64,000 bases of DNA, from assembly GCF_056746865.1 (NCBI RefSeq), contig NZ_CM163382.1. One strand, 5' to 3'. Position numbers and translations under genes: made by a program. Under the pieces are notes generated by a model. The model ran no database searches and had not been told where the DNA came from. It saw nothing but the letters and a program-made list of their open reading frames with translations. Positions within the stretch are counted from its first letter, which is position 1. Every line of letters begins with the position of its first letter. Positions 60,929-61,606 of this stretch are shown here, piece after piece.

Positions 60929-61606
60929 ATGAATACCAGAATGCTTTTTCCCCTGCTGTTCACTGTGGCATCCTTCTCCACCTCCGCCGGTAACTGGGCT
61001 GTCAAAAACGGCTGGTGTCAGACCATGACGGAAGATGGTCAGGCGCTGGTAATGCTGAAAAATGGCACGATTGGTATTACCGGCCTGATGCAGGGATGCC
61101 CGAATGGCGTACAGACGCTCCTGGGCAGCCGTATCAGTATTAACGGTAACCTGATCCCCACATCACAAATGTGTAATCAGCAGACAGGATTCAGGGCTGT
61201 TGAGGTGGAAGTCGGACAGGCGCCGGAAATGGTCAAAAAAGCCGTTCACTCCATAGCAGAGCGTGATGTGTCCGTTTTACAGGCATTTGGTGTACGAATG
61301 GAATTCACCCGCGGTGATATGCTGAAGGTCTGTCCGAAATTTGTCACATCACTTGCCGGTTTTTCCCCGAAACAGACACCCGCCATTAATAAAGATTCCG
61401 TCCTGCAGGCTGCCCGGCTGGCATACGCCCGGGAATATGACGAGGAAACAACAGAAACCGCTGATTTTGGCTCTTACGAAGTAAAAGGCAATAAGGTTGA
61501 GTTTGAAGTGTTCAATCCTGAAGACCGTGCGTACGACAAAGTGACCGTCACGGTTGGTGCTGACGGTAATGCCACCGGTGCCAGCGTTGAATTTATCGGA
61601 AAATAG
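60929..61606 (+). CDS. hypothetical secreted protein (signal peptide, 4 Cys)
   Basis: MNTRMLFPLLFTVASFSTSA signal-like N-terminus; no family recognised. Confidence 0.45.
   Translation: MNTRMLFPLLFTVASFSTSAGNWAVKNGWCQTMTEDGQALVMLKNGTIGITGLMQGCPNGVQTLLGSRISINGNLIPTSQMCNQQTGFRAVEVEVGQAPEMVKKAVHSIAERDVSVLQAFGVRMEFTRGDMLKVCPKFVTSLAGFSPKQTPAINKDSVLQAARLAYAREYDEETTETADFGSYEVKGNKVEFEVFNPEDRAYDKVTVTVGADGNATGASVEFIGK

Follow-up and report, generated by a model that had tools for sequence, protein, structure and literature searches.

The open reading frame at positions 60929-61606 (+ strand, ATG start, 225 aa) of the window, the 64,000-nucleotide stretch of DNA that was analyzed, is with high confidence a real gene for a periplasmic protein of a new family, here called X, which is tied to a slot in genomic islands between a GTPase gene and DUF905/DUF932 genes. 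As to its role, we tentatively favor an island accessory protein of the periplasm, of a binding or inhibitor type.

The reading frame is preceded by a ribosome-binding site (AGAGG, 60918-60922, + strand), which lies 6 nt 5' of the ATG of X and is kept in S65EC. At the N-terminus, MNTRMLFPLLFTVASFSTSA followed by GNW, a basic residue (R4) precedes a hydrophobic core of 12-13 residues (Kyte-Doolittle 2.06), with small residues (T/A) at -3/-1. Hydropathy and the -3/-1 rule, applied by hand, predicted a signal peptide of aa 1-20 (60929..60988, + strand; first mature codon at 60989) with SPase I cleavage after aa 20, between STSA and GNW. Throughout the family the cleavage site is of the AxA type, with GNW or AW after it, and aa 1-17 had a pLDDT <50 in the AlphaFold2 model. 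No lipobox or second hydrophobic segment was detected by hydropathy analysis of the 225 aa. The N-terminus has the features of a Sec/SPase I substrate, with a basic n-region before a hydrophobic h-region, small -3/-1 residues and no lipobox. Mature X is ~22 kDa with a pI of 5.2, and its cysteines are at positions 30, 57, 82 and 135. The reading frame and its product are as given in the earlier note, which had described a 225-aa protein with a signal peptide and four cysteines.

When X was compared with homologs from other genera and with other E. coli alleles, dN/dS was 0.14-0.30, in the same range as for the neighboring genes. Given these values and its conservation in several Enterobacteriaceae genera, X is a real gene and not a chance ORF, and its sequence strongly indicates a Sec-exported protein cleaved after aa 20. 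The 225-aa type is under ordinary purifying selection, with no sign in dN/dS of gene-wide diversifying selection within it.

Searches of Pfam, NCBIfam, PHROGs and PADLOC gave no significant match to X; in the PADLOC-DB v2 models of anti-phage defense, no family matched at E ≤ 1. Neither one single-sequence search nor two profile searches of PDB sequences gave a match, so the absence of a recognizable family was borne out. Homology to a characterized periplasmic protein, housekeeping or other, was also looked for and none was found. A profile search of 1.84 billion representative proteins returned only 61 matches, which define a small family once the match to one giant protein is set apart. That protein (7945 aa, 53 matching stretches) was rejected as a summed compositional artifact of acidic, Thr-rich tandem repeats; from its sequence we read it as a probable RTX-type adhesin. 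All database names of family members are "hypothetical" or "uncharacterized", and no published study of X was found in the literature on the RefSeq protein accessions or the island module. The X family is undescribed, and an exported accessory protein in a variable island slot with a WYL regulator is of a familiar kind.

All four cysteines are invariant in 19 close homologs, and W23, C30, C57, C82 and C135 are invariant in 24 aligned family sequences with identity down to 17%. These cysteines probably form two DsbA-made disulfides. The shared part of the family is an N-domain of ~120 residues. A lipobox stands before it in 8 of 22 members, with Asp at +2 in seven of these, and an SPase I signal in the others. 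In lipoproteins of Enterobacteriaceae, Asp at this position causes Lol avoidance and retention at the inner membrane. The common N-domain of the family is therefore periplasmic and at the inner membrane, and X itself most likely works in the periplasm.

Members of the family differ in what follows the N-domain. In X and its close relatives, a short linker leads to a single C-terminal domain. Distant relatives (26-28% identity, 271-491 aa) are longer: those of 271-336 aa have a long linker inserted which carries a "MGYEKxxDGxWxKKS" motif, and those of 377-491 aa have an additional Cys-flanked domain ("VNAFCTLDNGK..."). None of these extra linker or domain parts matched a Pfam family, and at E ≤ 10 Pfam gave only scattered noise on 24 relatives, plus one weak PepSY match (E 0.03). 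Several 65-77-aa "DUF905 family" proteins share the 90%-identity cluster of X, and a 281-aa variant of X exists (P0003). These may be read-through or fusion alleles of X and DUF905, where the gap is 5 nt as in S65EC, or clustering artifacts.

AlphaFold2 modeled full-length X as two small globular domains with a mean pLDDT of 78.7. The N-terminal domain (aa 21-142; 60989..61354, + strand) is the beta-rich, four-cysteine domain which defines the family; modeled alone with a diverse alignment, it reached a pLDDT of 90.7 and a pTM of 0.84, and as modeled it has no convincing structural relative. An RGD motif (FTRGDM, window 61310-61318, aa 128-130) is found as RGD or RGN throughout the 225-aa subfamily and not in distant relatives. 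IalB (invasion-associated locus B; PDB 3dtd), one of the known proteins compared with X, belongs to Pfam family PF06776, which neither X nor the 24 relatives matched at E ≤ 10.

The C-terminal domain (~aa 153-225; 61385..61603, + strand) is predicted as a helix packed on a four-stranded antiparallel sheet, the arrangement of the PepSY fold. Its fold matches include a designed cystatin fold (4r80, score 8.0), YpeB (5boi, 6.5), YpmB (2gu3, 5.8) and the colicin M immunity protein (2xgl, 5.4), as well as M4 propeptides, latexin and fetuin-B; they are weak and generic. The likeness is at the fold level only, as X shares 5-16% identity with these PepSY/cystatin-like proteins (YpeB, YpmB, M4 propeptides, Cmi). 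The Pfam PepSY model (PF03413) did not match X, and matched only one of 24 relatives, at E 0.03. Structure prediction, proposed as a check in the earlier note, gave the C-domain a cystatin/PepSY-like fold, and Foldseek gave no match for X in the PDB at E ≤ 1e-3. Overall, a two-domain protein with a family-specific four-cysteine N-domain and a cystatin/PepSY-like C-domain is strongly indicated. The characterized proteins with this kind of fold (YpeB, YpmB, M4 propeptides, cystatins, latexin, fetuin-B and the colicin M immunity protein) act for the most part as inhibitors of hydrolases or in immunity.

The earlier note had placed X downstream of a YeeP-like GTPase, and the gene directly 5' of X does encode an MMR_HSR1 GTPase of the YeeP/YkfA/YfjP type (59926..60810, + strand; Pfam MMR_HSR1 4.5e-15; "GTPase family protein" in RefSeq), forming the left border of the slot. 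Such a gene was found 5' of all the family members examined. A DUF905 gene (61636..61845, + strand; Pfam DUF905 1.4e-27) lies 29 nt 3' of X. The right border is a DUF932 gene (61936..62754, + strand; Pfam DUF932 2e-51), which opens a conserved run of DUF932, antirestriction, RadC, DUF987, CbeA and CbtA genes. The order in the window is Gp2-like, IS5, two unfamilied genes, GTPase, X, DUF905, a terminator-like hairpin, DUF932, antirestriction and RadC, and identical islands continue beyond RadC with DUF987, CbeA, CbtA, DUF5983, DUF957 and DUF4942. The K-12 "cryptic prophages" CP4-44, CP4-57 and CP4-6 are built on this gene order.

A position directly 3' of a YeeP-type GTPase gene and 5' of DUF905/DUF932, antirestriction and RadC genes was found in the window and in 15 related loci. 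The order GTPase-(WYL)-X-(DUF905 or DUF4234)-DUF932 was seen in E. coli, Klebsiella, Citrobacter, Atlantibacter and Trabulsiella. Around distant types it reads GTPase, usually WYL, the family member, a DUF905, DUF4234 or EcsC-like gene, DUF932, RadC and CbeA/CbtA. Wherever flanking DNA suffices, the 336-, 393-, 428-, 473- and 491-aa types occupy the same slot, a phage-like metagenomic contig (see below) being the exception; the 336-aa and 428-aa types are also present in a few E. coli genomes. Examining the distribution over related islands, as had been suggested, thus showed the family staying in one slot down to 26-28% identity. The long lipoprotein-type relatives (L026 9407-9940, L022 3994-4530, L010 8364-9035) are followed by a DUF4234 membrane-protein gene or an EcsC-like gene, not by DUF905, and from their position the products of these neighbors are possible partner proteins of the long types.

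That the slot is the one held by antigen 43 (Ag43) in K-12, as the earlier note stated, is correct: CP4-44 reads yeeP-isrC-flu, intact islands of other strains read GTPase-Ag43-DUF905-DUF932, and X replaces Ag43 in the window. The slot can also be empty, with the GTPase gene followed directly by DUF932.

The window island is 99-100% identical to that of the chicken isolate ECCNB12-2, which ends at a truncated integrase gene beside cadC. An IS5 copy (~56083-57276), with a transposase 100% identical to K-12 InsH6, lies between the Gp2-like gene and the unfamilied genes of the window and is missing from the ECCNB12-2 island. The unfamilied genes, just 5' of the GTPase gene, are convergent (57967-58890, +, 307 aa; 58887-59834, -, 315 aa) and "hypothetical" in RefSeq, and matched no Pfam or PADLOC family; they are 45-70% identical to their counterparts in the related islands of S65EC and of a metagenome-assembled Enterobacteriaceae genome. 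Elsewhere, a resistance cluster (3744-10608) carries floR (3744-4958, +), tet(A) (5558-6832, -), tetR (6836-7513, +), strB/strA-like phosphotransferase genes (8093-9732, -) and a sul2-like dihydropteroate synthase gene (9793-10608, -). The 225-aa ORF at 6836-7513 was rejected as a second copy of X, being the TetR gene next to tet(A); the equal length is coincidental. The window also encodes a 1291-aa serine-protease-type autotransporter (12840-16715, -; NCBIfam autotransporter barrel domain match) and a protein of 606 aa whose anchor is of the YadA trimeric autotransporter type (44242-46062, -), and the region therefore bears other envelope and virulence-type cargo.

Between the GTPase gene and X, a consensus scan of the + strand showed neither a sigma-70-like promoter nor a terminator, and it showed no terminator between X and DUF905. 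The sequence therefore suggests that X and DUF905 are probably co-transcribed. A strong terminator-like hairpin of 13 pairs (8 G-C) followed by a T run was found by the same scan after DUF905 (61867..61896, + strand), suggesting a transcription unit GTPase-X-DUF905 apart from DUF932 and the later genes.

In the commonest arrangement of the locus, an extra segment of 0.9 kb (~910 bp) encoding an HTH+WYL regulator lies between the GTPase gene and X. There were 2021 WYL segments against 2405 copies of X in E. coli, so that ~84% of X copies have the regulator just upstream, if each segment adjoins a copy of X. The window belongs to the minority which lack it: between 60810 and ~60855 the regulator is missing, and ~45 nt of unrelated sequence (60811-60855) stand where it sits in locus L012 (7886-8915). 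Homology to WYL-bearing islands resumes ~75 bp 5' of the X start in the alignment with S65EC, giving a conserved leader (60855..60928, + strand) common to those islands. With the gene missing, X may be unregulated in the window, or expressed only by read-through. From its adjacency, and by analogy with YfjR of K-12, we infer that the WYL regulator would control X in most islands. WYL domains in other regulators (DriD, PafBC, BrxR, CapW) sense nucleic-acid or damage signals.

X DNA (95-100% identity) was found in 1841 of 5426 complete E. coli genomes (34%), at up to five copies per genome and always annotated "hypothetical protein". The earlier note had mentioned neither this frequency, nor the usual WYL/HTH partner, nor the constancy of the slot at 26-28% identity. 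Homologs with 55-65% identity are present in Klebsiella, Citrobacter, Enterobacter, Lelliottia, Atlantibacter and Trabulsiella, and a genome scan with a close alignment of X matched six species-representative genomes. E. coli which bear X come from very mixed sources, and related types come from sediment and frogs among others. Five plasmid records out of 72,556 contained X, and one or more of these five is a mislabelled chromosome; none of 50,697 phage records contained it.

No relatives were found in these 50,697 catalogued phage genomes either. A 230-aa relative (33% identity, signal peptide; L008 7001-7693) does occur in a 49-kb metagenomic contig. The small ORFs of this contig are densely packed and run in one direction, and it has a gene for an endolysin (Hydrolase_2) and a fiber-like gene of 1478 aa; it is therefore probably an undescribed phage.

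Comparison of the types gave only 26-28% identity for X, along with differences in architecture, but 49-68% for the GTPase, 50-68% for the WYL regulator and 71-81% for DUF932; X is therefore a fast-evolving, modular element of a conserved backbone. Between E. coli islands (the window against L012 and L016), dS was 0.03-0.07 for X and 0.14-0.57 for the GTPase, DUF905, DUF932, antirestriction and RadC genes that flank it. This low dS points to mosaic islands in which the X allele has recently spread or undergone gene conversion.

In the explanation we favor, X would be an accessory ("moron"-type) gene of CP4-44/CP4-57/CP4-6-type integrative islands, and its product a soluble ~22 kDa periplasmic protein which binds an envelope or periplasmic partner. 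Its most likely action would be to block or inhibit a hydrolase, or an entry or assembly machine, at the inner-membrane face. X would then be of an exclusion or immunity type, protecting the host of the island from competing phages, elements or toxins. In most islands the WYL regulator would switch X on, and in the window X would instead be read through from the GTPase gene. This binding or inhibitor mechanism is itself doubtful; exclusion or immunity is the best single guess because the C-domain belongs to a fold class rich in inhibitors and immunity proteins, relatives are anchored at the inner membrane, and X diverges as it does between types. The fixed slot, the WYL partner, the K-12 parallel described below and a published account of these islands as mobile elements with defense genes and "moron" modules (PMC12458937) also speak for it. 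Counting against it are the weak and generic fold matches, the lack of matches in PADLOC and PHROGs, the lack of gene-wide diversifying selection and the lack of a regulator in the window; for WYL control, the absence of YfjR binding in ChIP-exo (PMC8464067) counts against it too. In addition, up to five near-identical copies can share one genome, which speaks against exclusion among islands of a single type. A wider proposal, which we consider rather unlikely, is that envelope proteins under WYL control diversify in this slot as a hot spot, and that the X family (four-cysteine N-domain, swappable PepSY-like and other C-modules, soluble or inner-membrane-anchored) is an unrecognized periplasmic class of exclusion or immunity proteins, found in a third of E. 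coli and blocking entry of phages, elements or toxins at the inner-membrane face.

X might instead modulate envelope physiology or stress in the manner of the CP4-6 lipoprotein YafY, acting on quality-control, biofilm or motility pathways and not on foreign elements. We regard this as unlikely, since X has no detectable homology to YafY/YkfB (hhalign probability <1%) and its extreme divergence between types better fits a role in conflict or recognition. The biofilm link of the WYL protein YfjR was also not confirmed (PMC8464067).

Less likely still is that X serves transfer or establishment of the island, as an early periplasmic helper working with the antirestriction/RadC module, for example by disturbing helper-phage lysis timing or by aiding uptake. 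The sensing of nucleic-acid or damage signals by WYL domains elsewhere would suit such a helper, as would the one distant relative near an endolysin gene in a phage-like contig and the position of X, probably co-transcribed with DUF905 and adjoining genes of establishment-module type (DUF932, antirestriction, RadC). In a 2025 preprint these islands are presented as integrative elements and perhaps phage satellites, with defense cargo and with "moron" modules which include RadC/ArdB and CbtA/CbeA (PMC12458937). However, X is missing from phage records and nearly so from plasmids, and as the slot is empty or filled by Ag43 in otherwise intact islands, X is dispensable for the element.

The least likely reading is a host-interaction or surface factor, reaching the surface or the medium via a type II system or vesicles for adhesion, invasion or colonization; the earlier note's "exported effector or surface factor" is not supported, as X has a Sec signal only and lacks an autotransporter barrel, a lipobox, a secretion-system partner or any outer-membrane targeting feature, its lipoprotein relatives with Asp at +2 point to the inner-membrane side of the periplasm, the RGD motif is lost in distant relatives, IalB is reportedly an inner-membrane protein, and occurrence in 34% of E. 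coli genomes of very mixed sources means that X is not limited to one pathotype.

X is among the commonest completely unannotated exported proteins of E. coli, and the islands which bear it carry virulence, resistance and defense cargo. Its fixed position, its pairing with a WYL regulator and a divergence far above that of its neighbors make it a testable module, analogous to yfjR-yfjS-yfjT and yafY-ykfB in K-12. If the favored role in envelope-level exclusion or immunity is true, a periplasmic layer is added to island biology and part of the K-12 y-ome is explained by analogy; without such a role, X is an ordinary island accessory gene.

Ag43 and X occupy the same place, with the island GTPase gene on one side and DUF905/DUF932 on the other, and both are envelope-directed. 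However, Ag43 is an autotransporter of 1039 aa which self-associates and has a beta-barrel of its own, whereas X has 225 aa, a Sec signal only and no barrel; Pfam and NCBIfam detected no autotransporter beta-barrel or passenger domain in X, and the model consists of two small globular domains. The Ag43 promoter is phase-variable with GATC sites, as seen in K-12. In contrast, neither a GATC cluster nor an isrC sRNA was found 5' of X, and Rfam gave nothing in 55-64 kb.

Two cassettes of K-12 also parallel the X locus. CP4-57 reads yfjP(GTPase)-yfjQ(DUF932)-yfjR-ypjK-yfjS-yfjT. Here YfjR has HTH and WYL domains, YfjS is a lipoprotein of the inner membrane (PF20494), and YfjT is a protein without an assigned family, treated as bearing a signal peptide by analogy with YkfB, which was read directly. 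By gSELEX, YfjR is reported to target only its own operon (PMC8249747), whereas no binding of YfjR was seen by ChIP-exo (PMC8464067). CP4-6 reads ykfA-yafZ-ykfK-ykfL-yafY-ykfB-ykfF. Its pseudogene ykfK (L028 8777-8968) translates to the N-terminal HTH part of the WYL-type regulator family associated with X, and CP4-6 therefore once had a WYL regulator followed by ykfL-yafY-ykfB. Homology of X to YafY/YkfB was rejected (hhalign probability 0.1-0.2%; blastx too), and X had no Pfam match to PF20494, the family of the YfjS/YafY lipoproteins. The K-12 cassettes lie after DUF932 and encode a lipoprotein plus a periplasmic protein, whereas X lies before DUF905/DUF932 and is one two-domain protein. 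Nevertheless, YfjR-YpjK-YfjS-YfjT and YkfK-YkfL-YafY-YkfB resemble the X locus in island class and in neighborhood (GTPase, DUF932, DUF905, antirestriction, RadC, CbeA/CbtA), and they share its theme of a WYL/HTH regulator followed by small exported proteins, in their case a lipoprotein kept at the inner membrane (Asp at +2) and a signal-peptide protein.
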